Of a stretch of 32,000 nucleotides of DNA, positions 1 to 13,437 are shown piece by piece. The stretch spans positions 210,001 through 242,000 of the forward strand of contig NZ_CP025989.1 in assembly GCF_003072485.1 (NCBI RefSeq), written 5' to 3'. The DNA comes from Candidatus Fokinia solitaria. Its GTDB lineage: Bacteria; Pseudomonadota; Alphaproteobacteria; Rickettsiales; Midichloriaceae. The translations under genes were made by a program, and so were the position numbers. Positions within the stretch are counted from its first letter, which is position 1, and every line of letters begins with the position of its first letter. Under the pieces are notes generated by a model. The model had not been told where the DNA came from. It did not search any database and was given only the letters and a program-made list of their open reading frames with translations.

Positions 1-332
1 ATGTGAGAATCTTCCAGCATATGCTGCGGTAAAGGCATTTGTACTATTATACCGTTTACTTTAGAATTTTCGTTTACCTCAGATATAGTATCGGATAGTT
101 GCTTCAATGAAGCATCTTCTCCAAATTTCAGTATATGAAATTCTATACCAAGTTCTTTTGCTTTAGCTTTTTTTATTCTGACATAAGTATCGCTGCTTGG
201 ATTGTCACCTACCATTATAGCAGTGATGCAAGGTACGATATTAAGTTTTTTGAGATTACGTATTTCCTCTCTCAATAGCGTAAAAATTTCTTCTGCATAA
301 CTAGTACCATTTATAATTTTCGAAGATTGCAT
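1..332 (-). CDS. folD: FolD, bifunctional methylene-THF dehydrogenase / methenyl-THF cyclohydrolase; N-terminal ~110 codons, gene runs off the left edge
   Basis: Absent from the ORF track because there is no stop in the window. Reverse complement from ATG (332-330) reads MQSSKIINGTSYAEEIFTLLREEIRNLKKLNIVPCITAIMVGDNPSSDTYVRIKKAKAKELGIEF...VNGIIVQMPLPQH. This is the classic FolD N-terminus (VGDxPxSxxYVxxKxK...GI...VQxPLP). Confidence 0.85.
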   Translation of the reverse strand, partial: MQSSKIINGTSYAEEIFTLLREEIRNLKKLNIVPCITAIMVGDNPSSDTYVRIKKAKAKELGIEFHILKFGEDASLKQLSDTISEVNENSKVNGIIVQMPLPQHMLEDSH

Positions 333-562
333 GTTAGTAACTTAAATCGTGTAGCATTGTAGAAAGACTTTACGAGAATTATAAAACTGATGATATCGTT
401 ATACAACTGTAAGAGTTTTTGTTAATGTTTCTTTAATCATGAGAAAACTGCAATATCTCTAAAGTTTTGAGTAGCTGAAGTCCTATTATGACGGCTTCCT
501 GGATCTTATTACTGCGTTTATAGAGTATCTATCACCTTCGATGCTCTTTTAGAAGAAAGTGG

Positions 563-3181
563 ATGTATAAGATGTTCAATCGTTTGTTAAATCGCATTAT
601 ACGCGCTACTCTTGGTAAACATGTAGCGATGTTAAAGGCGCGCTTTATAGATCCGCTTATTAGTAATAGCGATAGAGACGATTTCATCCTTAGCTCTTCA
701 TCTTCAAAAAAGTCTTCCGTCAGCTTACCGAAGGAAATAGAAATACCCGTAGTATATGGACGATGTAGAATGCAGTGTCATGTGATTTGGGCTGATAAAG
801 TAGTTAGTATCAGAGATGAGGAGGATAGTAGTGGTTCATCGTACGTTTATGTAAAATCCTTTGCAGTAGGTATATGTAGAGGACCTATCTTTAATATCGG
901 CCACATACTAGTTAACGGACAAAATATTGGTATTCAAAAAAATATAAGAATTAGAGTATACTACGGCACAGAAGACCAAACGGTAGATCCGCTGATAGCG
1001 ATGAGATTGCAGCACCTTTCTACACCTTATAAAGGGCTAGCTTATATTGTTATTCAAAACTTTCCAGCGTCTGACTATAGCCCCTCGATTAAAGTAGAAG
1101 CAGAAATCTCCGGTATATATGACGCAGAATACAGAAGGCGATATGCAATGGATGCTATAAATCTGATCGGTAATGGAGAATTTACATATGATACATTATC
1201 AAACACTCGATACCTTGAATGTCCCGAAGGAGCAGGTACTTGTCAGAGAAGAGATTATTTTCAGATAAATGAATATCATACTGCAGGATCAGCAGATGTA
1301 ATAGTATCTCTTCACGAGCTAAAACGTGCTATGCCAGGCATTAGATGGGTTTGTGTTACAGTATATTGGTTTGCTACTACATATGACATAAAGGATGCAG
1401 ATATAAGACCAGGAGTAGAATTCAGAGGTGATCATACTGCTACTAATCCAGTCACGTGGGTAGTATCTAAGTATACAAGAGATACTGCTGAGCTTATAAA
1501 AAAAGATGCAAATGGTAAATTAATATATACCGGTACAGCAGGTACTATATGCGTTGACAGAATAGTATCAACTTTGAAACAGAGAGGATATAAAGTTATG
1601 CTAAAGCCGATTTTGTTAGTGAATAGAGAAGATAAACCATGGAGTGGAAAGATGGTATGTAATGCATCTGATGTGAGTAATTTTTTTAATAAAGAGGAGG
1701 GTTACAATAACTTTATTACTCATTATGCGAGAGTGCATAGTGGCTTGCTCGACGCCTTTCTTATAGGTTCAGAGCTTGTAAGTCTTACATCATGTCGAGA
1801 TAATGATGGAAATTTTGTCGCAATAAAAGAGCTAAAAAAACTTGCAGATATAGTAAGGGTACTGATACCAGGTAATGTTATGGTGTCGTATGCAGCGCAT
1901 TGGTTAGAATATCATCATACTGATGGTGGATGGTATAATTTAGATCCATTGTGGAGCGACCCAAATATACACTTTATTGGTATAAATAATTACATGCCTC
2001 TGACGGAAGATACAACATCTAGCTATGACATAGAGTATCTTATAAAGTGTTTTGATAGTGGAGAGGGGTACGATTATTTTTACGAATATACAGATTCTGG
2101 TAAAAAAAAGCGTCCTCTTGCGGAAAAATACGCGTGGAAGAATATTGAATGGTGGTGGAGTAATTTGCATTATAATCCCGATGGCGCTGTAACTTCGTGG
2201 ATTCCGGAAAGTAAGAAAATTTGGTTTACGGAATATGGTTTTCCATCGGTGCATTTAGCTACCAACAAGCCAAGTGCATTTTTGCCTTCTGATGAGACTT
2301 CATCTCTTCCAATACACTCTAACGGTAAGTTGGATTTCCGAATGCAAAAAGTTGCTATTTGCGCAATGGAAAAAAGATGGCAGGATTCGAAATGCGTTCA
2401 ACGGAAGTTTTTACAATCCTGGGATGCTAGGCCTTATCCTACTTGGCCTGAGAGGCTTGATGCGTGGAATGATACTGAGATGTGGGAGAAAGGGCATGAT
2501 GTGCAAGGAAAGTTCGATACGTGTTATCTTGCTATAATTATTGAAGATTTGTGTGAGAGAGCGCAGATACCTAAGGACAAAGTAGTAACTTCCGAACTCA
2601 TCGACAAAACAGATGGATTTTTCATCTTACAGAATTCGACGTGCGAAGAGATAATTCAGCAATTGAAGGAAATATTTTTATTCGATATCGTCGAAGATGA
2701 CGGTAAGATACACTTTATTTCTCGTAAAAATGGGAAAAAAGTACCAATACCAGTAGAGCATATTTTACGAGGTGGAGGTAGTTTTAAAGCATCTAAGATA
2801 TGTGAATTTAATGAGATACAGAGGTATGCAATTTCGTTTATTAATACTACATTTACATATGATAAAGACATCATGCAGTATAACAGCGAAAGTAAGACAA
2901 GATCTTTAAGTCTCTTATATGAAGCGAATCTTGTGATAAATCGTGTATGTGGAAAACATCTATTAAAAAAGATAGTAGAGAATTCATTTGCGTACTTAAG
3001 GCAGTATGAGATTTGTATGGGGTTATCACTACATATTATGCCATCCGATATACTGATTGTGAAGATTGGCGGAGGTGAGGTATCACTGAGAGTTATTATG
3101 GCAGTAAGGTATGAACATCACTTATATCTGTTTTGTTATGAAGAAAATATTGTTAAGAATCTTCCCTTTGATGAAGAATAA
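563..3181 (+). CDS. Gene-transfer-agent ORFg15-type protein (GTA TIM-barrel-like glycoside-hydrolase domain plus phage-tail-like domain), shortened version
   Basis: 872-aa ORF. Motif series I recognise from RcGTA g15-type proteins: PVVYGRCR..VIWA, RVYYGTEDQTVDPLI, YKGLAYIVIQNFP, INLIGNGEFTYDT, IRPGVEF, FLIGSELVSLT, SYAAHWLEYHH, LDPLWSDPNIHFIGINNYMPL, WWWSNLHYNP, IWFTEYGFPSV, WDARPYPTWP..WEKGH. A tail-protein-like stretch follows (DGFFILQNSTCEEIIQQLKEIFLFDIVEDDGKIHFISR). An in-frame stop at 521-523 prevents a longer N-terminus. Confidence 0.8.
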   Translation: MYKMFNRLLNRIIRATLGKHVAMLKARFIDPLISNSDRDDFILSSSSSKKSSVSLPKEIEIPVVYGRCRMQCHVIWADKVVSIRDEEDSSGSSYVYVKSFAVGICRGPIFNIGHILVNGQNIGIQKNIRIRVYYGTEDQTVDPLIAMRLQHLSTPYKGLAYIVIQNFPASDYSPSIKVEAEISGIYDAEYRRRYAMDAINLIGNGEFTYDTLSNTRYLECPEGAGTCQRRDYFQINEYHTAGSADVIVSLHELKRAMPGIRWVCVTVYWFATTYDIKDADIRPGVEFRGDHTATNPVTWVVSKYTRDTAELIKKDANGKLIYTGTAGTICVDRIVSTLKQRGYKVMLKPILLVNREDKPWSGKMVCNASDVSNFFNKEEGYNNFITHYARVHSGLLDAFLIGSELVSLTSCRDNDGNFVAIKELKKLADIVRVLIPGNVMVSYAAHWLEYHHTDGGWYNLDPLWSDPNIHFIGINNYMPLTEDTTSSYDIEYLIKCFDSGEGYDYFYEYTDSGKKKRPLAEKYAWKNIEWWWSNLHYNPDGAVTSWIPESKKIWFTEYGFPSVHLATNKPSAFLPSDETSSLPIHSNGKLDFRMQKVAICAMEKRWQDSKCVQRKFLQSWDARPYPTWPERLDAWNDTEMWEKGHDVQGKFDTCYLAIIIEDLCERAQIPKDKVVTSELIDKTDGFFILQNSTCEEIIQQLKEIFLFDIVEDDGKIHFISRKNGKKVPIPVEHILRGGGSFKASKICEFNEIQRYAISFINTTFTYDKDIMQYNSESKTRSLSLLYEANLVINRVCGKHLLKKIVENSFAYLRQYEICMGLSLHIMPSDILIVKIGGGEVSLRVIMAVRYEHHLYLFCYEENIVKNLPFDEE

Positions 3182-3193
3182 TACTTCTTCATC
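3170..3193 (+). terminator. Weak hairpin spanning the stop codon of the g15-like gene (possible leaky terminator or attenuator)
   Basis: GATGAAGAA (3170-3178) / loop TAATAC / TTCTTCATC (3185-3193): a perfect 9-bp stem followed by TTATT. The stem is AT-rich and the U-tract is short, so function is uncertain. Confidence 0.3.
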
Positions 3194-3282
3194 TTATTGG
3201 AAAAAGAAATATTCTGAATTATATATTTTAATCATATAAATATTATGTACAATCTTGATATACAAAGTGAAGTGCAGTTTGG

Positions 3283-6200
3283 ATGAAGTGCTATACGATA
3301 GCGTTTGTTATAGTACTGATTTTGCTATCGAGTGCAGTGCGTTGTGCGTATGCAGAGAATATTAATAAAGCACAAAGAAGCTGCGGAGATTTTAATGGAA
3401 TATACTTTGGTAACTGTAATAGCGATATATTGCCTCTTCATCTTCGTCGATTGACAGGTGGTACGATAGAGGTTACTTCTCCTGATCCGTTTGATGCTTC
3501 GTATCAATTATTGATTTACGAATGCGTTTCGTATAAATCGCCAATATCTCCTACTAAATGCGGCTTCGATGCTCTAAGAAGTAGGAAGACGATTACATTC
3601 AGCCCGTCTCAAGTAAATGATATTAGATCATATTCCGGAGGTTCATTATGTAAAAGTGGTATTTATTACAAAAAAGCAGGAGGTTTGGTTGCTTGTTTGT
3701 ACTCGTATCCTACAGATGGTTTTGATAGCTCTACATTAACATCAGATCAATCTGATGTGTACACTATATTACAGTCTTTCTCGCAAGTATGTGATGCTTC
3801 TACCCCGCTTGGATGTGTGTGTGGAATAGTAGAAGATCATTACCTTCAATTGCACAGTGTATTTCGCACAAAAAATGTAATTGGATGCGTACCAATGATC
3901 ATTCTTCCTCCACCTCCGACTTTTAATCAGATTCTTACTCCTCCAGTAACAATTTTCATTCCAGGACAATCGCCAAATAGTACTTTTGATATGCCTACAG
4001 TACAAGTCCAGTCTTCTCCTGCAAATTCAAATTCTTCTGGCTCAACGATAACATTGCAATATTCTTTCAGCGCAAAAACTCAAACTTGTCAATCTCTACC
4101 ATCTATAATGGGCTCATTTTGTCCATCTATTTCTAGTGATGGTAGCGAAATATGCGTTACTCAGAATTTCTCCAATGGTTGGCCTTCAAATTCGCTAGGT
4201 TGTATACCGCGTCCTAGTATCAGCCAAAGTTCGAACATAGTAATTATACCATACTATGATTATAGCAATACCACTGCGCAGTCAGTTGGAGTTGCGATAC
4301 TACAATCTACAAATGGTCCGATTACGCCAATTTCTGGATTAGTACCAATAGGGTATGATAGTAATGGCGATGTATTATCTCTTGATTCGAATTATAATTT
4401 AGTTGCTACGCCAACCGATAGTACGCAATCTCAGCCTGCAAAATGTAGTCTTGGGACAAATCTTAATCCAAAATTTCCTCTTCCAGCATGTACATTATCC
4501 AGCGGCTATAAGGTATATGGCGCAACTCTTCTTGAAAGTGACAGTGCATCGTCTACAAATAATATAACGGAGTATGTTATTGCTTCTAAGCAGTATGATG
4601 CTGTTAAAACGACGACCGTGTATGAGAAGAAAGGTACTCCTACTATAAAACGATACTATAGTTATACTCAACCTATCGTAGCATTTGAGAATTATGCAAA
4701 TGAGATAGCTACTAACATTTATAATCTGAACATTAAAGCGTTGATTTTAAGTAGTAATGCACAACAGCAGTATATATATCTTACTTCATCAGATGGCGAG
4801 TGTGGTAGAAATTGCGAAATATTTGATACTTTTGACGATAGCAAAGCATCTGCGAAGATCTCAGCATTTGAGTCTAAGGTACAAACGGCGTTAAGCGAAA
4901 TAAAACCAAAAGTAGTGTTTTATGCACAAGAGATAAAACTTGATATAAAAAATAATCCTCAAATCATTACGAGTTCTGAAGTGGAAAAACTCACAAAACT
5001 CTTAGATTCTACAGATCGTGCGAAAGCTAAGGATAATTTTAATAAAGTGAAAAATATCTTAGAAAGTAAGATGTGTCCGCCTAGACATTGTTGGAATTGT
5101 TCATCTTGGAAAGTTGATAACACGGCATCTGATGCGATACCATTTTACATACCTGGTGGCTGGATGAGTAGAAGAGCGGAATATTGCTATTGTGGAGATG
5201 GAAAGAATGAATGTCCTATGGTTGATAACCAAGAGTTACTTGCTCTTGCACAAAGTAATCAGAGTGGAATCGAAAATTTAGAAAGTGAATACAAGCATGA
5301 TAAGAGTAATGCGCAAAATAAAATGATGGAAAATATTTCATCGGATGCGCAGGCGATAGTATCAGAGGATAACTATTGTTCTTGCGCGTTGTGTATGAGA
5401 AATACTACTCAAGAGAAGGCAGATCTGCAAAGTCTTTATAATAAGTACGAGCAACATCTACCTTCGATAAGTGAAATACGTTCTTATTTCAATAAGAATC
5501 AAGGAAATTCTGAAGTGAGTGCGCAAATCTTCATTGATAGAGCTGCTTGTCCAGGTCTTTATAACGGTCCTAATGATCGACATACAAGCATTCCGGATAA
5601 AATGTGCATAATGAGTTCCGGTAATGGATGGGATTTTATATCAGGGAATAATTCGCAAAGTGATGCGGCAAATACTGTTGCATTATTACCTCCTCAGCCT
5701 GTATGTGTCAGTCTTCCGCAGCAATGTACGGTGCCAAGTACAGTTGCAAACGCTACAATACAAAAAGTTATGCCGTTTCCAGTAGAGTTTTATAATGCGG
5801 ATGATCAGCAAGTGAGTGTTGCACAGTTAAAACAAACATCTACATCTTCTTCCAGTAGTGAATCCTCTACTAGTACGACAACACTCCCTTTAAGTGTCAA
5901 TGTAAATACGATGGTTGGTGTTCAGTGTAGCGATGGATATAGTGCAGCGCCTGGTGCTGCTACTTACAGTTTGATTTTACCACCTTTACCTTGCAATAAC
6001 GATACAGCAAGTGCGTCTACTAGTACCACTCAAACAGCGTCATCCACTACAGGCACCGCAACAGATGCTACAACAAGTAGTAATACGATAATAAATGCAT
6101 CATCCATTACCATTCAAACAACAAGTCCTACATCTTCATCAGATATGACAAGTAGTATTACTGTTACAAATACGTCTTCTACTACGTCGACTCTCCCGAT

Positions 6201-8826
6201 CCTTATGCAACAAACTTGTGCTGTGACGGCAGGCTATATAAATGATACCACTGTTGTTCTCACAGCAAATCAAGGCTGCACTTTTTTCCCTAGTAACAAT
6301 GGGGAAGTAACAACGATATACTACTACACAGATTCAACAGGTCAATGTGATACTTGTAGCAGTACCACACCAACTATAAGAGTGGCGTTTTATAGTGATT
6401 TAGTTGTAACTAGTAGTTGCACTGATAGCGGTAGAACATATTATGTTGATATAGCGCCTATCTCTTCGATATATTATAACAATTACGTTTTAGGATTAGC
6501 GTTGCAGCCTCTACCACAGGTCAATATAGTAGACGGTACTGTAATCTTTGCTGGTGGTACTTCATCGCTCTTCTATTCTACATCTTATTCAAGTGTTGTA
6601 GATCAAATCCGAAACAATATGGATCAGTATGGCAATACGTATCAATACGTATTGCCTTGTGATTCGCAGGGGATACTGCCTGGTTACTTTATGCTGTCTT
6701 CTGATTCATATCTTCAGGTGGAAATATCTCAGAGTTTTCAGAATCAGATAACGCAGTATGCTACAAGTAATGCTGGTACTCCACCTTCAGGAGAGCTTAC
6801 TTTTACGTTGTATGGTACAGTAGCAGATACAAATATTGCCAATCTCTCGTCATATATACCTGCTTGGGTAGCAGATCCTACTTGGCCTGCACTTACGGTA
6901 AGCAGCAGTGGTGATCAAATCAGTTCATCTCTTACTGTATCTTCTCCTATCAGTCAAGAAGCTATACCATCTTCTCCAATTCCTCTTATTATGCAGTCTA
7001 CTTGTAACATGACTCAGAATCGCGAGACAATTTCTGTACAAAATTGCGGAGCGTTTCTCAGTAATTCAAATGATTCAAGTACTATTATCTTCGAATATGT
7101 CAATTTCTCGCAAATAGATGGCACCGTACCTGAACTGCGTATAGGGGATAATAATACTGGCACTAATAGTATGCTATCCTTAGTTAATGATACCTCTTTC
7201 TCAGTCTCTGCTCTAAACAATGTAAATGATAGTAACACTACGGTAGCATTTTTATCAGAGTCATTCACTTGGAATGGAAATTCTTACGCTATTGTAATGG
7301 TACCGAGTGCTAGATTTACATTAAAAGAAATAACTTCAACTTCAGCAATATTTGGTGGAGGAGTTTCTGTTGGTGTTATGAATGAAGATGGATATATATA
7401 TGCTACGTATTCTCCACTCAATGCTTGTTTTAGTGATGATTCTGGATGTTTACCGTTCATAGCTCTTTGCGATGGTGTACCATGTGTGACGTTTTCTTCT
7501 GATACTTATTTAGCAATAGAAATGCCGTTAAGTCTTACAAGTAGTTTAGAGAATCAAGATTATACTGGTTCTGGCTCGGTTACCTTTAGTTTGTATGGCG
7601 CTATTAATAGTACTAATATTCCAAATCTTTCATCAATATTACTAGGTAAAGCGAGTAATCTTCCAACACCTACATCTACCACTACTCAAATAAGTACAGC
7701 AGCACAGACATCATCTACTGCTGCAGCTCCTCCGCTTATTATGGAATCTACATGTAATAATGATACAACTCCGTTTGATTATATTGATGGTTATTTTAAC
7801 TTTGGTCAAAGTTGGACAGCGTTTTTCAGTGAGATTGGAGGTATTACCGGTGTAAATATTGATTACTTACCTCCAACATATACTGGTGATTCGATGCCAA
7901 TGCTTACTCTACTTGCTAATGGTACGGTTTTTACTAATTGCAGTGGACAGGTAATTGGTTCGGGTGCTGCAGTCTTTTTGTCTAAGTCATTTTGTTTTGG
8001 AGGAAGTTGTGGATACTACATCATTATGGTACCTAATACTAATATTGTACAAACGAGTACTACATCAAATTCGGCAATATTTACAGGCACAGTTTCTATA
8101 GGTATAGTATCGTATAGTACTTTCTTAGATGGACGTACTATCAACACTTGCGCAACTGATAACACTTTATTCAATAGTTGCGATACGCTTGGATCTTCGT
8201 GCTCGCCATTAACGCCATGCTATAATGGTGGTCCGTATGTAACGTTATCTTCTGACGCGTACTTTCAAGTAGAGATGCCATTAGGTTTAGTTGAAAGCTT
8301 GAATACGTCTACGTCGTCTAGCACTATAAGTCCTTCAGGTACAACTATATTTAGTTTATATGGTACGATAAATACCAATATTCCGAATCTTGCCTCGATA
8401 CTACTTGGTACTGTCAGTAATGCTTCATCAGTAATGTCCAGTACCACTACATCGACACCAGCGTCCAGTACTACTACATCAACGGCGAGTACTACTACAT
8501 CAACGGCGAGTACTACTCAAGCATCAACATCCAATACCGGAAAATGCGATAGTAGTACTGCCGCAGAAAATGCAAAGCGTGAAGGAGCAGTGAAAGAGTT
8601 TCAAGAGCTTGTATCAAAAGCTAAATCAGAAGGGAGAAATGTCGTTATAAGTGATATAGAAAATACACAATATTTAAAGAATTTCAAAAATTATATAAAA
8701 TGTACAGGCGCTGAAATGAAATGCATTGGAGGTATGTTTTATAGTCAAGATGTATGCGTAAAGACCAGCGATCTTCCTACTAATGATTTTTGCATTGCGC
8801 ATACAGTACCGAGTAGTACAGATTAA
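3283..8826 (+). CDS. Giant secreted/surface protein of unrecognised family, rich in Cys and Ser/Thr (1847 aa)
   Basis: Single uninterrupted ORF. Sec-type signal peptide MKCYTIAFVIVLILLSSAVRCAYA/EN. Dozens of Cys spread over the whole length. Pure Ser/Thr tracts and many N-x-S/T triplets. Lys/Glu-rich central segment. Three tandem ~255-aa modules in the C-terminal half. No TM anchor, lipobox, LPXTG, RTX repeats or C-terminal beta-barrel signature seen. Confidence 0.85.
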   Translation: MKCYTIAFVIVLILLSSAVRCAYAENINKAQRSCGDFNGIYFGNCNSDILPLHLRRLTGGTIEVTSPDPFDASYQLLIYECVSYKSPISPTKCGFDALRSRKTITFSPSQVNDIRSYSGGSLCKSGIYYKKAGGLVACLYSYPTDGFDSSTLTSDQSDVYTILQSFSQVCDASTPLGCVCGIVEDHYLQLHSVFRTKNVIGCVPMIILPPPPTFNQILTPPVTIFIPGQSPNSTFDMPTVQVQSSPANSNSSGSTITLQYSFSAKTQTCQSLPSIMGSFCPSISSDGSEICVTQNFSNGWPSNSLGCIPRPSISQSSNIVIIPYYDYSNTTAQSVGVAILQSTNGPITPISGLVPIGYDSNGDVLSLDSNYNLVATPTDSTQSQPAKCSLGTNLNPKFPLPACTLSSGYKVYGATLLESDSASSTNNITEYVIASKQYDAVKTTTVYEKKGTPTIKRYYSYTQPIVAFENYANEIATNIYNLNIKALILSSNAQQQYIYLTSSDGECGRNCEIFDTFDDSKASAKISAFESKVQTALSEIKPKVVFYAQEIKLDIKNNPQIITSSEVEKLTKLLDSTDRAKAKDNFNKVKNILESKMCPPRHCWNCSSWKVDNTASDAIPFYIPGGWMSRRAEYCYCGDGKNECPMVDNQELLALAQSNQSGIENLESEYKHDKSNAQNKMMENISSDAQAIVSEDNYCSCALCMRNTTQEKADLQSLYNKYEQHLPSISEIRSYFNKNQGNSEVSAQIFIDRAACPGLYNGPNDRHTSIPDKMCIMSSGNGWDFISGNNSQSDAANTVALLPPQPVCVSLPQQCTVPSTVANATIQKVMPFPVEFYNADDQQVSVAQLKQTSTSSSSSESSTSTTTLPLSVNVNTMVGVQCSDGYSAAPGAATYSLILPPLPCNNDTASASTSTTQTASSTTGTATDATTSSNTIINASSITIQTTSPTSSSDMTSSITVTNTSSTTSTLPILMQQTCAVTAGYINDTTVVLTANQGCTFFPSNNGEVTTIYYYTDSTGQCDTCSSTTPTIRVAFYSDLVVTSSCTDSGRTYYVDIAPISSIYYNNYVLGLALQPLPQVNIVDGTVIFAGGTSSLFYSTSYSSVVDQIRNNMDQYGNTYQYVLPCDSQGILPGYFMLSSDSYLQVEISQSFQNQITQYATSNAGTPPSGELTFTLYGTVADTNIANLSSYIPAWVADPTWPALTVSSSGDQISSSLTVSSPISQEAIPSSPIPLIMQSTCNMTQNRETISVQNCGAFLSNSNDSSTIIFEYVNFSQIDGTVPELRIGDNNTGTNSMLSLVNDTSFSVSALNNVNDSNTTVAFLSESFTWNGNSYAIVMVPSARFTLKEITSTSAIFGGGVSVGVMNEDGYIYATYSPLNACFSDDSGCLPFIALCDGVPCVTFSSDTYLAIEMPLSLTSSLENQDYTGSGSVTFSLYGAINSTNIPNLSSILLGKASNLPTPTSTTTQISTAAQTSSTAAAPPLIMESTCNNDTTPFDYIDGYFNFGQSWTAFFSEIGGITGVNIDYLPPTYTGDSMPMLTLLANGTVFTNCSGQVIGSGAAVFLSKSFCFGGSCGYYIIMVPNTNIVQTSTTSNSAIFTGTVSIGIVSYSTFLDGRTINTCATDNTLFNSCDTLGSSCSPLTPCYNGGPYVTLSSDAYFQVEMPLGLVESLNTSTSSSTISPSGTTIFSLYGTINTNIPNLASILLGTVSNASSVMSSTTTSTPASSTTTSTASTTTSTASTTQASTSNTGKCDSSTAAENAKREGAVKEFQELVSKAKSEGRNVVISDIENTQYLKNFKNYIKCTGAEMKCIGGMFYSQDVCVKTSDLPTNDFCIAHTVPSSTD
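6196..8409 (+). repeat. Three diverged tandem protein modules (~250-262 aa each) inside the giant gene
   Basis: Each module opens with P(I/L)(L/I)M(Q/E)(Q/S)TC (nt 6196, 6982, 7732). Each closes with (T/S)F(T/S)LYG(T/A)..NI(A/P)NL(S/A)S (around nt 6796, 7579, 8344). Shared internal blocks: SSD(S/T/A)Y(L/F)(Q/A)(V/I)E(I/M), and AFLSESF..YAIVMVP..TSAIFGGGVSVG versus VFLSKSF..YYIIMVP..NSAIFTGTVSIG. Similarity is at protein level; DNA is only moderately similar. Confidence 0.8.
8440..8518 (+). repeat. In-frame 21-nt tandem repeat encoding STTTSTA
   Basis: AGTACTACTACATCAACGGCG occurs exactly twice (8467-8487, 8488-8508). It is flanked by a degenerate 27-nt copy (8440-8466) and a partial copy (8509-~8518). 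Confidence 0.85.
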
Positions 8827-8837
8827 TGTAGTATGTC

Positions 8838-10274
8838 CTATTTGCGAGTGGTAGGCACTTTCCTAGGCTCGGAGGTAAATTCAGTTTTTATTTTATTAAA
8901 TACTTGCTTCAGATTACTGAATCCTTCCACTTCAATAGATGTACGCAATTCTGATTTCGCAACATTTACGAGATTTTCTTTCGGTATGATTGCTTTCTTG
9001 AAGCCTAATTTAGACGCTTCATTTAGTCTGTTATCGATATAAGAGATTGGACGTAATTCACCAAGTAATCCTATTTCTCCTATGAAAACGGTGTCACGCG
9101 TGATTAATATACCGTAATATGCGGATAATAAAGCTACCGCAACGGCTAAATCTATGCCTGTTTCGTTAATTTTCAATCCTCCTACGACATTGAGATATAC
9201 TTCTTTATCCATTAATTTGATACCTATTCTTGAATTTAGTATTGCTATTATCATACCGAGTCTAGGGCTATCCCAGCCGATAGATAATCTTCTCGGATTT
9301 GTGAAAAAAGACTGCGATGTAAGGGCTTGTATTTCTACGATAATACTGCGAGAGCCTTCATGGAAAGCTGCAATACATGAGCCCGCTACCCCTCCATCGT
9401 ATTGTTGTGTAACAAATAATTCAGATGGATTTTTGACTTCCATTAAGCCATCGTTTGACATTGTGAATATCCCTATATCATTTGTAGCACCGTATCGATT
9501 TTTGATAGATCTGATGATTCTATGTTGCTTCATGTTTTCTCCTTCAAATGACAGTACTACATCTACCATATGTTCTAGTAGTTTAGGCCCTGCTATTTGC
9601 CCGTCTTTTGTAACATGTCCTACTATAATGACTACATTTGAAAGCTGTTTTGCGAGTTTTATTAGTTCGAAAGCGCATGCTTTTACTTGACTCATACTAC
9701 CAGGCGTTGCACTGATCTCATCCAGGTATATCGTTTGTATAGAATCTACTATAAGAACGCAGCTTTTTTTATTACTGTTTACAGTGGCTATAATTTCTAG
9801 CAATGAAGTTGTAGTGAGTATTTTTATATCATCTCCTTCAATCTTTAGCCTTTGTGCGCGTATTTTTAGTTGATTAAGTGATTCTTCAGCGCTGATATAT
9901 ATACTCGGTATTCCCTTTAGCGCAAGTTTATTACAGAGTTGCAGCAAAAGTGTCGATTTTCCTATTCCTGGCTCGCCACTCAAGAGAATTGTGGATTGCG
10001 CAACTATTCCTCCTCCAAGTACTCTATTCAGTTCTTCAAATCCAGTATCATATCGTGATAGTAGTTCTGATGCTAAAGCAGTAAGTTCGTTCATTGCTAT
10101 TACTCTTCCTAAAACATCTTTTTTAGAAAGATTTTGAGAAAGTCCACTTATGTTCAGATCCGTTAACTCTTCTAGTATTGTATTCCAAGAGCCGCAGCCA
10201 TCGCATTTACCAACCCATTTAGCATACTGTGTACCGCATGTTTGGCATATGTAAGTGACTTTATTTTTCGACAT
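8838..10274 (-). CDS. radA: DNA repair protein RadA/Sms
   Basis: 478 aa. N-terminal C4 zinc finger CQTCGTQYAKWVGKCDGCGSWNT, Walker A GEPGIGKST, KNRYG motif, C-terminal Lon-protease-like domain. Confidence 0.92.
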   Translation of the reverse strand: MSKNKVTYICQTCGTQYAKWVGKCDGCGSWNTILEELTDLNISGLSQNLSKKDVLGRVIAMNELTALASELLSRYDTGFEELNRVLGGGIVAQSTILLSGEPGIGKSTLLLQLCNKLALKGIPSIYISAEESLNQLKIRAQRLKIEGDDIKILTTTSLLEIIATVNSNKKSCVLIVDSIQTIYLDEISATPGSMSQVKACAFELIKLAKQLSNVVIIVGHVTKDGQIAGPKLLEHMVDVVLSFEGENMKQHRIIRSIKNRYGATNDIGIFTMSNDGLMEVKNPSELFVTQQYDGGVAGSCIAAFHEGSRSIIVEIQALTSQSFFTNPRRLSIGWDSPRLGMIIAILNSRIGIKLMDKEVYLNVVGGLKINETGIDLAVAVALLSAYYGILITRDTVFIGEIGLLGELRPISYIDNRLNEASKLGFKKAIIPKENLVNVAKSELRTSIEVEGFSNLKQVFNKIKTEFTSEPRKVPTTRK

Positions 10275-10383: not shown

Positions 10384-13300
10384 TCAAAATATTTTATCTC
10401 TGAAATTAAAAGTAAATTTAGGTCGATAATCTTTTCTGTGTATGACTGTAGTTATTGGAAGAAGAAGTATATCTATGAAAGTTTTAAGCATCATCTTTCC
10501 TTTAAATTCTATCTCATTTCTCTGTATATTAGCGTTTCCTTCTCCAATGATTGTGAACATATCACTTTCTATATTGCATCCGATCAAAGATATCTCATTC
10601 GCATTCAGTGCAGTAATATAGCACTTACTGTTCTGTATCCCAATTTGCTGCTGCATGGTGATAATCTTAACAATATTTATCATGCTAGGATATAAAGATA
10701 AAACGCGCAAAGCTGTATTTATCAATTTATTGTTATGGATATCGAGATTCGACACCTGTAGTACATTTTCATCTATGTATTGACTTTGTCCAATTGTTTT
10801 AAAATTTACATCAAGTATCACGTTACCTTTTTTAAATTGTTTAAGGCTAGGAACTTTTTTCACCAATGATGTAACATTTTGTAGACGGATTGATAATTTA
10901 TCATTTGCATAAGCAATTTCGTAACGTCCGGTATTGCCAGTGCTGTTTGTGAGACATGTAAATTTTGTATCTTTGTCATTATTGCCGCGAATGTAGCGCA
11001 GCATAGTATTGTAAAGTTCGATCCTTTCGCCAAGTAATATATTCTCTATATCAAGTAATACTGACATGGTGCGATTGTCTTTTTTACTGCTACGTAAGTT
11101 TAAAAGATCTGTAATAGTCAATCCTGAGAGATTAAGAGTGTTCTGTTTGACATCAATAGATATATTATCCTTACTCTTCTTTATTATCGTTTTTTCTTCC
11201 TTTGAAGTAGCATATGCGGGAGTGATGACAAAGATTTTCTCATCATCTTTATCTTCGATAGCGATGGTGCCATCATACGAAATTGCAGAACTATTTACTA
11301 AGAATTTATAAATACCGTTTAAATTATGCGTTACAATGCTAACATTAGCGATATTTACTGGATTATTGCTTCTATATATCGAAGCGTATTGGCATTTTAT
11401 ACTAGCTGATTTAAGTGCTATTTGATCGTCTATGCTTAGCGCAATTAAAGTGTTGAGTTTATTTCGTGGTACAATTTTTACGTCTTCAAAATACACTGGA
11501 CTATAAATCGACGAAAGAACGACAATTTCGTTCATGCCATTCGATTTTGTGAGTGGCATTTGCTTTACTGCTAGATCTTTTTTCTTAGCGAGTGCTTGTA
11601 CTTTTTCTTTGTATTCGGAAAAGCCAATATTGTTGTTCTTTCTTATTTTTTTTGCGTTTATCTCATAGTTAAGGAAAGCTTGATGTACGTCTTTCGCATT
11701 ACGAAATTCACCATACGCTTGAATGACATTTTCATGCCAAGAAAGTAGTACATTATCGAATTTAACGTTTAATCCTAATAACTGACGTATTTGGTGCGTA
11801 TACGAGGTCTCTTTTAACGATACATTATTTGCGTGTCCGTTTATTTTAAAAACAGGATTGTTGTCTTTTTTAAAAAGATCAAATTTTAGATTCATTAGAA
11901 ATGTTCCTCTCGTATTTTGCACATCAAAGTTATCGTCGATTATATCGATAATGCGTTCTACGGATTTTTGAGTGAAAAATGTCTTTATGACGTCTAAGTA
12001 CGAAATTATTTTACCTTCGGTGTAATACGTAATATCAGCAAAGTTATTGTCGGTACCGAACGTGATATCAGCTTGTCCACTTGATATATATAGCGGATTG
12101 CTTTTTGGCAATTTATGTTTCTCCAGTATTTTAGAGAAATCTGCATATGCGTTTTTAGCGTCTAAATGCACATTTGTTTCTTTATTGGAAAATTCTCCGC
12201 TGACAGCTACATTTTTTCCAAAGATTACTGGAAATTGTAGTGATAGTGGAGCGAATTTGGAATTAAGCGTATTTGCTTTCCACGAGAAATGCTTTACTTC
12301 ATCTTCTGCATATAAAAGTGTAAGTTCACTACCTTCTACTATGCTATCGAAAAATACATTTTCTTGTATAAATTTCTTTGTATTTTTCCCAAATTTCTGA
12401 GGCCAGTATGTGAAAAAGTCATTTCTTGAGATTGGAGAAGTATTTTTTATGGAGCAATTCAGTTGTGGTATTTTATGTTGATATTGTAAATTAAATTTAG
12501 CTGTTACTCCATTATCTGTAGAGATATTGCCATTATTGATATTGAGAGTCTTATTTTGTACGTCGAAATAACCGTGACCAGTAATGATGTCCAACGTTTG
12601 GCTATTATGAGAGAGGATATTTTTTATATATGCGTCGTGAAAATTAAATGATATTTCGAAAAGATGAAGAGCATTTTGATTGATGGAAATTTTGTACTCA
12701 GTTTCGAGAGGAGTGTGTTCTTTGGATAGCGCATATTTTGCGAGAGTGACGTTTATTGCGCTACTTACGTATTTACTGTTATTAAGTTGAGGTTCAATAA
12801 GCGCATTAAGTTTTGCTACATATTGCTGGGCATTATTAATAACTGTACCAACACTCTCTATATCGTATTTTTGATTACTTTTCTTTATGCTTAAAATGAA
12901 TTTTTCGAGGAATACTTGCTTATTTGTCTCGTACTGTAAGGTGATATTTTGCAACTCTATCTTTTGAGGCATTAACTCGAGTGATTTAGAAAGTATTTTG
13001 AAATTACTGTACTTGGAATCAGTAGTTTGTATGTATTGACTCAGTATAGGGAGAGTTTCCTTATCAAGCTTGCAGTCTGACATTGATATGGAATCAATCT
13101 TAAAAAATGACCATGGTAAAAGTGAGAGCGATACTTTTGTATTTGGCAATGTGTATTGAAAATGTGAAGTCGCTTTATCTGCGATAAAAGCAGCGCATTG
13201 AACTTCAACAGAAAATGGTAGATTTTTAAATCTAAGATCTACGTTTTGCAGTATTAGTTCTTTATCATGAGGTAACTTTGTGTATTTTGTTACAATGCTT

Positions 13301-13437
13301 TGTATTAATAGTTTTTGATGCTGTGTAAGTCGAATGTGTAGTAATGTGAGAAGCGATGTGAAAAGTACCATTAATAGCAATGCTATTGCGATACTCTTTA
13401 CTAGAATCCATATGTGATACGCAAAAGTTCTTCTCAT
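10384..13437 (-). CDS. Large inner-membrane-anchored AsmA-family (YhdP/DUF3971-like) protein
   Basis: 1017 aa with one N-terminal TM helix (WILVKSIAIALLLMVLFTSLLTLL) and a long Asn/Lys-rich, beta-looking body. The assignment rests on architecture and a weak C-terminal resemblance, not on strong motifs. A 12-nt gap to rsmG suggests co-transcription. Confidence 0.45.
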   Translation of the reverse strand: MRRTFAYHIWILVKSIAIALLLMVLFTSLLTLLHIRLTQHQKLLIQSIVTKYTKLPHDKELILQNVDLRFKNLPFSVEVQCAAFIADKATSHFQYTLPNTKVSLSLLPWSFFKIDSISMSDCKLDKETLPILSQYIQTTDSKYSNFKILSKSLELMPQKIELQNITLQYETNKQVFLEKFILSIKKSNQKYDIESVGTVINNAQQYVAKLNALIEPQLNNSKYVSSAINVTLAKYALSKEHTPLETEYKISINQNALHLFEISFNFHDAYIKNILSHNSQTLDIITGHGYFDVQNKTLNINNGNISTDNGVTAKFNLQYQHKIPQLNCSIKNTSPISRNDFFTYWPQKFGKNTKKFIQENVFFDSIVEGSELTLLYAEDEVKHFSWKANTLNSKFAPLSLQFPVIFGKNVAVSGEFSNKETNVHLDAKNAYADFSKILEKHKLPKSNPLYISSGQADITFGTDNNFADITYYTEGKIISYLDVIKTFFTQKSVERIIDIIDDNFDVQNTRGTFLMNLKFDLFKKDNNPVFKINGHANNVSLKETSYTHQIRQLLGLNVKFDNVLLSWHENVIQAYGEFRNAKDVHQAFLNYEINAKKIRKNNNIGFSEYKEKVQALAKKKDLAVKQMPLTKSNGMNEIVVLSSIYSPVYFEDVKIVPRNKLNTLIALSIDDQIALKSASIKCQYASIYRSNNPVNIANVSIVTHNLNGIYKFLVNSSAISYDGTIAIEDKDDEKIFVITPAYATSKEEKTIIKKSKDNISIDVKQNTLNLSGLTITDLLNLRSSKKDNRTMSVLLDIENILLGERIELYNTMLRYIRGNNDKDTKFTCLTNSTGNTGRYEIAYANDKLSIRLQNVTSLVKKVPSLKQFKKGNVILDVNFKTIGQSQYIDENVLQVSNLDIHNNKLINTALRVLSLYPSMINIVKIITMQQQIGIQNSKCYITALNANEISLIGCNIESDMFTIIGEGNANIQRNEIEFKGKMMLKTFIDILLLPITTVIHRKDYRPKFTFNFRDKIF

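Follow-up and report, generated by a model that had tools for sequence, protein, structure and literature searches.

Two neighbouring genes of Candidatus Fokinia solitaria: a short gene transfer agent megatron and a giant cysteine-rich exported protein from a virB4-linked family

When a gene derived from a phage-like tail stands directly before a gene for a giant secreted protein, do the two products work together or are they only neighbours? This question is raised by a stretch of 32,000 nucleotides (contig NZ_CP025989.1, positions 210,001 to 242,000; hereafter the window) of Candidatus Fokinia solitaria, a Paramecium endosymbiont of the Midichloriaceae (Rickettsiales) with an 837-kb genome (PMC5905368). 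The first of the two genes resembles g15, which encodes the baseplate megatron of gene transfer agents (GTAs), and the second is a giant open reading frame (ORF) with 100% identity to Fsol_00208. Both have the same orientation and are separated by 101 nt, as an earlier sequence-only reading of this DNA had stated; its ORF coordinates were confirmed, and its descriptions of the products were also borne out. The first is indeed a shortened g15 homologue, as seen from matches to NF048004, GTA_TIM and 6tba and from the missing fibre-binding domain, and the second carries a signal peptide as well as repeated modules and flexible linkers, here identified as a hydrophobic segment ending in AYA/EN, three modules and Ser/Thr-rich linkers. 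The same reading had further proposed that the two genes form a functional module. If true, such a device of GTA parts plus a fibre would be a remarkable example of how phage parts are domesticated in an endosymbiont, but the evidence leans the other way.

We consider it fairly probable that the two genes are functionally independent and became neighbours in Fokinia through genome shrinkage and rearrangement. They are regarded as unrelated because their linkage is not retained outside the genus, because the family of the giant protein has a different conserved partner, virB4, because the megatron lacks the only domain with a known role in holding a fibre, and because the two products are predicted in different compartments. 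On the same points, i.e. synteny, virB4 coupling, the lost fibre domain and the compartments, the proposed functional module found no support.

Linkage of the two genes across genomes

Outside the window, the adjacency of the g15-like and the giant gene was found only in F. crypta, which shows the same gene order (folD, g15-like gene, giant gene, radA, a 1020-aa ORF, rsmG, mlaE, lysS). The entire region of about 20 kb is collinear in the two species, hence this genus-level adjacency is uninformative on function. Conserved synteny in related genomes had been named as a check of the proposed module, and beyond the genus it spoke against the module. In the Midichloriaceae bacterium Vederia_01 the g15 gene is situated beside a GTA cluster (~591.7-595.3 kb) and the gene of the giant's family between ppdK and acpS (~381.7-384.1 kb), which leaves ~207 kb of the same contig between them. 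In Jidaibacter, a 174-aa ORF and ftsZ come after g15, and the family gene, preceded by virB4, lies on the opposite strand 2.8 kb away in convergent orientation, with ftsZ in between. The gene folD is found 5 kb upstream of g15 in Jidaibacter and directly upstream of it in Fokinia. This shared folD-g15 linkage, together with the virB4-family pair only 2.8 kb from g15, is consistent with the collapse of an old neighbourhood. Other genes follow the megatron gene in strain Ac37b and in two lineages with short megatrons. Moreover, g15 was not found at the other loci of the family (L011, L014, L015, L017, L018, L020), where 6.7-22 kb were covered per locus, with about 6.7-18 kb each for L011, L014, L015 and L020 and 10-kb flanks for L017 and L018.

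A cysteine-rich exported family and its virB4 partner

The giant protein has relatives, with which it forms a family that has so far escaped annotation. An exhaustive HMMER profile search with its residues 25-850 identified 18 remote homologues of 242-1012 aa, mostly 600-1000 aa (best E value 2.6e-28); word-indexed searches, done with the giant protein and again with the family profile, returned F. crypta only, and exact-sequence look-ups of the two window proteins were without result. A hidden Markov model (HMM) of the family, which matches the giant ORF of the window with an E value of 1.7e-143, added proteins of Jidaibacter acanthamoeba (588 aa), Anadelfobacter sociabilis (913 aa), Vederia_01 and an uncultured alphaproteobacterium. 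Nearly all full-length members start with a hydrophobic, signal-peptide-like N-terminus and have in common a cysteine framework with the motifs GCVP..PPxFN, LGCxPRP, CPGxYxG, WDFIxG and a C-terminal C(I/F)GGxY..C. The giant protein has the signal peptide as well as the cysteine framework and motifs over ~800 aa, and these features, including CIGGxY, are shared with the family proteins P0123-P0144 and those of Jidaibacter and Anadelfobacter; its first ~900 and last ~100 residues are the parts that belong to the family. The family proteins have no match in Pfam, NCBIfam or the PDB, and no paper on them was found in the literature searched. In the preferred reading, gene 2 of the pair encodes a Sec-exported, disulfide-rich member of an unannotated family of the Midichloriaceae and related metagenome-assembled genomes.

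A motif scan of species genomes gave four plausible and four probably accidental hits and missed F. solitaria itself, although positions 3883-3927 of the window match the motif. One metagenome scan produced 334 pattern matches, of which none was confirmed, and a scan of metagenomes with a degenerate motif yielded a single 1.5-kb locus.

The architecture of the giant protein can be read against this family background. A single hydrophobic segment at the N-terminus ends with AYA/EN, and hydrophobicity indicates no further membrane-spanning segment past this signal peptide. The mature chain contains 58 Cys. Its core carries the motifs GCVP..PPxFN, LGCxPRP, CPGxYxG and WDFIxG together with a CCP-like start (C..GY), and harbours two Fokinia-specific helical inserts at roughly aa 500-600 and 650-745. 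Three tandem modules of ~230 aa follow, which are related to each other (pairwise BLASTP E values of 4e-28, 1.5e-10 and 1.3e-9), and Ser/Thr-rich linkers with up to 62% Ser plus Thr per 50 aa are placed after the core and between the modules. The family alignments show the giant protein as the family scaffold with linkers and modules added before the C-terminal domain and with the two helical inserts in the core. Among all sequences handled in the analysis the modules are confined to the two Fokinia proteins, three copies being present in F. solitaria and two in F. crypta. The Fokinia proteins thereby differ from the other family members, being about twice as long owing to the two helical inserts, the Ser/Thr-rich linkers and the 2-3 extra modules, and they are not encoded beside virB4. 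The last Ser/Thr-rich linker is encoded in part by a perfect 21-nt tandem repeat (8467-8517), which is likely to vary in length by slippage. In F. crypta, the giant gene probably starts five codons before the annotated Met (L001 8926-8955), a shift made because MKCY(T/I)(I/M)AF is conserved there.

Structure prediction and database searches did not reveal relatives outside the family. The AlphaFold2 (AF2) model of the core is confident for aa 25-435 only and beta-rich in this part, and module 3 is modelled mainly as beta-strand (pLDDT 65, pTM 0.70) with no match in the PDB. For the core model, Foldseek found no match in the PDB and none with E<1e-3 in BFVD, where all TM scores were <0.2. At the sequence level, PHROGs gave 0 hits, the PDB no match and Pfam and NCBIfam nothing credible, and seven separately searched segments remained without Pfam match even at E<=10. 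Likeness to fibres, spikes or receptor-binding proteins of phages or GTAs was hence looked for in PHROGs, the PDB and BFVD via Foldseek and was not found. Features of classical adhesins, i.e. a translocator beta-barrel, a TPS domain or Ig-like, cadherin or RTX repeats, were absent according to Pfam, NCBIfam and hydrophobicity. The giant protein probably resides in the envelope or at the surface, and its build would suit a surface-located stalk or adhesin. In evolutionary terms, Fokinia seems to have lengthened the family scaffold: between the core and the CIGG domain it gained Ser/Thr-rich linkers and beta-rich modules, of which F. crypta has two and F. solitaria three, and an extended envelope or surface protein would be the outcome.

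The conserved partner of the family is virB4. At four loci, namely L017, L011, the Jidaibacter locus L003 and the deeply divergent L020, the family gene starts inside the stop codon of virB4, with the junctions ATGA in L017, GTGA in L011, TAATG in L003 and a 1-nt overlap in L020. The upstream protein of L020 has no Pfam annotation on record; it is 27% identical to the VirB4 of L017 over the full length (E 5e-66). A canonical Walker A motif was absent in all three VirB4 proteins examined for it, and virB3 does not precede virB4 in L017 and L003, the two loci with identified upstream genes. A duplicate RvhB4-II/VirB4b of the Rickettsiales has been described with altered NTP-binding residues and a location apart from the other vir genes (PMC2653234). 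The virB4 gene linked to the family fits this duplicate, because it lacks Walker A and is not preceded by virB3. The ancestral place of gene 2 was probably directly downstream of a Walker-A-less, RvhB4-II-like virB4 paralogue with overlapping stop and start codons, and an ancestral functional tie of the family to the rvh type IV secretion system (T4SS) is likely. By contrast with these loci, virB4 is missing from both the window and the corresponding locus of F. crypta.

Two side observations concern the surroundings of the family genes. In L020, the gene after the family gene is a Ppx/GppA homologue; genes of the Ppx/GppA type have been reported within Rickettsia vir operons (PMC2653234). In Anadelfobacter, the family gene (L015:1089-3830) is divergent from the gene of a 290-aa protein (L015:70-942, minus strand) with a borderline match to the SLT (lytic transglycosylase) domain, which falls in the size class proposed for the rickettsial VirB1.

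What might such a protein do next to an altered VirB4? In the canonical virB operon, virB5 follows virB4, and the TraN protein of F-type systems is a large, Cys-rich outer-membrane protein of mating-pair formation. The family resembles both by analogy only: its gene follows virB4 as virB5 does, and its products are large, Sec-exported and Cys-rich like TraN. The giant protein differs from VirB5 and TraN in showing no sequence or fold similarity to them (Pfam, NCBIfam, PDB, Foldseek), and it is far larger than VirB5. The rvh system has been described as lacking a VirB5 analogue (PMC11077975). It might therefore be proposed, tentatively and with a rather low probability, that the family is an unrecognised exported component of the rvh T4SS, which is co-expressed with the ATPase-dead RvhB4-II and possibly takes the missing VirB5-type role at the surface or in adhesion, and that Fokinia turned it into a long mucin-like stalk of linkers and beta modules after uncoupling from virB4. 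The role of RvhB4-II and the absent VirB5-like subunit are long-standing questions on rvh systems, for which a conserved partner gene is a concrete candidate. This unannotated Cys-rich exported family, with its translational coupling to a puzzling duplicate virB4 of the Rickettsiales, is the most useful by-product of the analysis, and the Fokinia giant would represent its expanded, mucin-like variant.

The giant protein could also be a secreted effector or a host-directed adhesin without any type IV connection, in which case the virB4 linkage in relatives would reflect shared regulation or chance. This remains a doubtful possibility as well. It agrees with the Sec signal, which is not a T4SS signal, with the mucin-like linkers and the species-varying repeat number, both typical of host-exposed proteins, and with the fact that six of the ~10 independent family contexts examined have no virB4 beside the family gene. 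Stop/start overlaps with virB4 in four lineages, which span the deepest split of the family with VirB4 proteins of only 27% identity, are on the other hand hard to obtain by chance.

The g15-like gene as a short-form megatron

The first gene of the pair (ORF1) is a GTA megatron gene. Its product matches the NCBIfam model NF048004 (GTA_megatron) with an E value of 3.7e-163. The match is not full-length, spanning profile positions 23-951 of 1299, and it scores 545, which is under the equivalog cut-off of 800. Pfam assigned GTA_TIM (PF13547) to residues 380-629 (E 1.6e-53) together with a partial GH113 match, and Phage-tail_3 (PF13550), the central domain that docks on the distal tail protein, was found weakly (E 0.001, 19.4 bits at a cut-off of 23). 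Tail-protein families were matched in PHROGs, and a PDB sequence search retrieved g15 of RcGTA (6tba) with an E value of 1.3e-72. In agreement, NCBI names the product 'baseplate megatron protein TIM-barrel domain-containing protein'. The RcGTA megatron is composed of iris/penetration (1-46), adhesin-like (47-229), peripheral (230-744), central (745-984) and fibre-binding (985-1304) domains (PMC7296036). ORF1 aligns with RcGTA g15 (Rcc01698; PDB 6tba/6teh; NF048004) and the Jidaibacter megatrons from about residue 15 to 844, a span that takes in the adhesin-like and peripheral TIM-barrel domains and the weakly matched central domain; in BLASTP, residues 15-844 align with residues 29-880 of a 1232-aa Jidaibacter megatron. 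It differs from RcGTA g15 in its sub-cut-off score, in its position away from g12-g14 and, above all, at the C-terminus.

Compared to full-length megatrons, ~350 aa are gone at this end, which correspond to the fibre-binding domain (PF23666). This domain is present in nearly all megatron homologues of ~1220 aa and was not found in ORF1 by Pfam, NCBIfam or BLASTP. An HMM built from 103 megatron C-termini matched neither the giant protein nor anything in the six translated frames of the window, and an origin of the giant gene from the lost C-terminus was rejected on the basis of its negative scores. Among the columns conserved in at least 95% of 103 full-length homologues, 137 of 223 are kept in ORF1. 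They include the TIM-barrel residues G402-S403-E404 and T556-E557, and E404 and E557 may be the two catalytic glutamates of the clan GH-A fold, whereas many conserved residues of the N-terminal adhesin-like part are gone. The megatron carries no export signal as judged from hydrophobicity. In the window, the GTA neighbours g12-g14 are missing beside ORF1, which stands between folD and a non-GTA gene; in relatives, a g14-sized ORF is found directly upstream of the megatron gene. Position 563 is favoured as the start, because MYK(M/I)FNR is conserved in F. crypta and the codon of the second Met, at which the NCBI protein (869 aa) begins, encodes Ile there.

Short megatrons are not restricted to Fokinia. 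Other lineages have similar forms of 881-887 aa, and two of them (P0079 in L005 and P0104 in L006/L007, ~886 aa) come from uncultured Rickettsiales-like genomes. They resemble ORF1 in having GH113/GTA_TIM and Phage-tail_3, the latter a weak match in ORF1, in lacking Rcc01698_C and in near-equal length, and differ from it by an identity of only 36-43% and by different downstream genes. The short megatron gene of L006 adjoins what is left of a GTA cluster, with genes for a prohead protease, capsid, head-completion, g12 and g13, whereas housekeeping genes surround that of one other locus. The genes on the 3' side are a 99-aa ORF in one locus and a 152-aa ORF followed by a phage lysozyme gene in L006. 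The recurrence of ~886-aa forms elsewhere speaks for a viable variant and against a random truncation. A recurrent megatron form without fibre-binding domain, described here at the domain level, bears on the role of reduced GTAs in endosymbionts.

Between F. solitaria and F. crypta, the g15-like protein is 52% identical, compared to 62-92% for the neighbouring housekeeping genes. The dN/dS ratio is ~0.30 for the g15-like gene, 0.28 for the giant core and 0.05-0.15 for the neighbours, at saturated dS. The Rickettsiales are reported to keep genes for capsid/portal, distal tail/hub and megatron broadly in scattered loci, with their tail genes under relaxed yet purifying selection and some pseudogenisation (PMC9254644). 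With its dN/dS of ~0.30 and its intact ORF of 870-872 aa in both Fokinia species, ORF1 fits this pattern of selection and scattered retention. Gene 1 would then be a fast-evolving member of the vertically inherited, scattered GTA set of the Rickettsiales under some purifying selection, a megatron in a naturally recurring short form that kept the TIM-barrel (glycoside-hydrolase-like) and, apparently, the central domain and lost the fibre-binding domain.

It is unlikely that the gene is instead a decaying relic of a lost GTA, truncated at the C-terminus, under relaxed selection and without present function, so that its position beside the giant gene would be meaningless. Decay would be in line with the lost fibre-binding domain, the absence of g12-g14 neighbours in the window, the many conserved residues lost from the adhesin-like part, the fastest evolution within the region (52% identity, dN/dS ~0.3) and the relaxed selection and pseudogenisation reported for tail genes of the Rickettsiales (PMC9254644). 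However, both species of the genus, whose genomes measure ~0.8 Mb, kept the ORF intact although their synonymous divergence is saturated, the TIM-barrel core was kept with both conserved glutamates, and ~886-aa forms recur in other lineages, once beside GTA head and tail genes.

Finally, joint action of the two products is very unlikely. In such a scheme the giant protein could, for instance, stand in for the missing fibre-binding domain and tail fibre and bind the receptor within a device derived from a tail and directed at the envelope or the host. It would agree with the adjacency with conserved orientation and 101-nt spacer in two Fokinia species, with a fibre-like gene coming next at the very place where the megatron has lost its fibre-binding domain, with the same elevated evolutionary rate of both genes and with the distance of only 2.8 kb between their homologues in Jidaibacter. 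These points are countered by the region-wide collinearity of which the Fokinia synteny is a part, the ~207 kb between the homologues in Vederia_01, short megatrons elsewhere without such a gene downstream, the coupling of the family gene to virB4 in four lineages, the lack of likeness of the giant protein to the fibre-binding domain, PHROGs families or viral folds, and the Sec export of the giant protein, given that the megatron has no signal peptide and GTA baseplates assemble in the cytoplasm.

Several points nevertheless weigh against our preferred reading of two independent genes and of a virB4-tied family. The pair is kept in both Fokinia species, co-oriented and with a conserved spacer, the hairpin between the genes is a poor terminator, and co-transcription is possible. 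Only ~10 contexts of the family were examined, and six of them are without adjacent virB4. The AF2 models are of moderate quality (pLDDT 62-65) with no fold match, and the suggested surface stalk is drawn from the architecture alone. Furthermore, the content of GTA genes and rvhB4-II in F. solitaria is judged from the 32-kb window only.

The spacer and other features of the window

The two genes may be transcribed independently. The hairpin that the sequence-only reading had noted at 3170-3193 is real, with a folding energy of -13.9 kcal/mol in a 51-nt context (z = -3.9; none of 200 shuffles was as stable). Its T-tract on the 3' side is poor, and the terminator scan made no call there. A role as weak terminator or in RNA stability is conceivable. 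At the same position in F. crypta, another stem, of 5 bp and with T7 after it, is present. Within the spacer, the block TACAATCTTGATATA (3248-3262) is invariant in both Fokinia species and located 21-35 nt before the giant ATG, which makes it, judged from the sequence, a candidate -10 region of a separate promoter of the giant gene. A weak terminator combined with an own promoter and transcriptional read-through are thus both possible. Consensus scans for promoters and terminators gave results at the background level in this AT-rich DNA. One of the two terminator-like calls in 300-9000 was a palindrome inside the giant ORF (6631-6656) with a perfect 11-bp stem (GGCAATACGTATCAATACGTATTGCC).

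Table 1. Positions of the features discussed (window coordinates; those with a locus prefix refer to loci of other genomes)
Feature	Position	Strand	Description
g15-like ORF, short-form GTA megatron	563-3181	+	872 aa; adhesin-like, peripheral (TIM-barrel) and putative central domains; without C-terminal fibre-binding domain
Hairpin	3170-3193	+	perfect 9-bp stem, 6-nt loop, over the TAA stop; GATGAAGAA / TTCTTCATC
Spacer	3182-3282	+	101 nt, mostly conserved between the two Fokinia species
Giant ORF	3283-8826	+	1847 aa
Sec-type signal peptide	3283-3354	+	aa 1-24, MKCYTIAFVIVLILLSSAVRCAYA/EN; predicted from hydrophobicity and sequence reading; also in family members
Cys-rich family core	3355-5997	+	aa 25-905
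Inserted module 1	6190-6882	+	aa 970-1200
Inserted module 2	6970-7662	+	aa 1230-1460
Inserted module 3	7729-8418	+	aa 1483-1712; predicted mainly beta-strand
Perfect 21-nt tandem repeat	8467-8517	+	2.4 copies of AGTACTACTACATCAACGGCG; encodes STTTSTA units of the last Ser/Thr linker
C-terminal family domain and stop codon	8539-8826	+	~95 aa; helical stretch, then KCIGGxFY..C; conserved in F. crypta
folD, 5' part (context)	1-331	-	divergent from the g15-like gene; F. crypta orthologue with Pfam THF_DHG_CYH domains
Short megatron genes	L005:10001-12661; L006:10001-12664		fibre-binding domain absent
virB4-family gene pairs	L017:7722-12520; L011:451-5396; L003:16539-20584; L020:5842-10310		stop/start overlap, a translational-coupling signature

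No ORF was found between folD and the g15-like gene (332-562), and the window contains no tRNA or Rfam elements. The pair had also been described as the only non-housekeeping block of the window. This is roughly right, except that an ORF of 1017 aa without Pfam match (10384-13437, minus strand) is present as well. Its product has an N-terminal hydrophobic segment and is probably envelope-associated, and the ORF is kept in F. crypta with 61% identity and a dN/dS of ~0.15.

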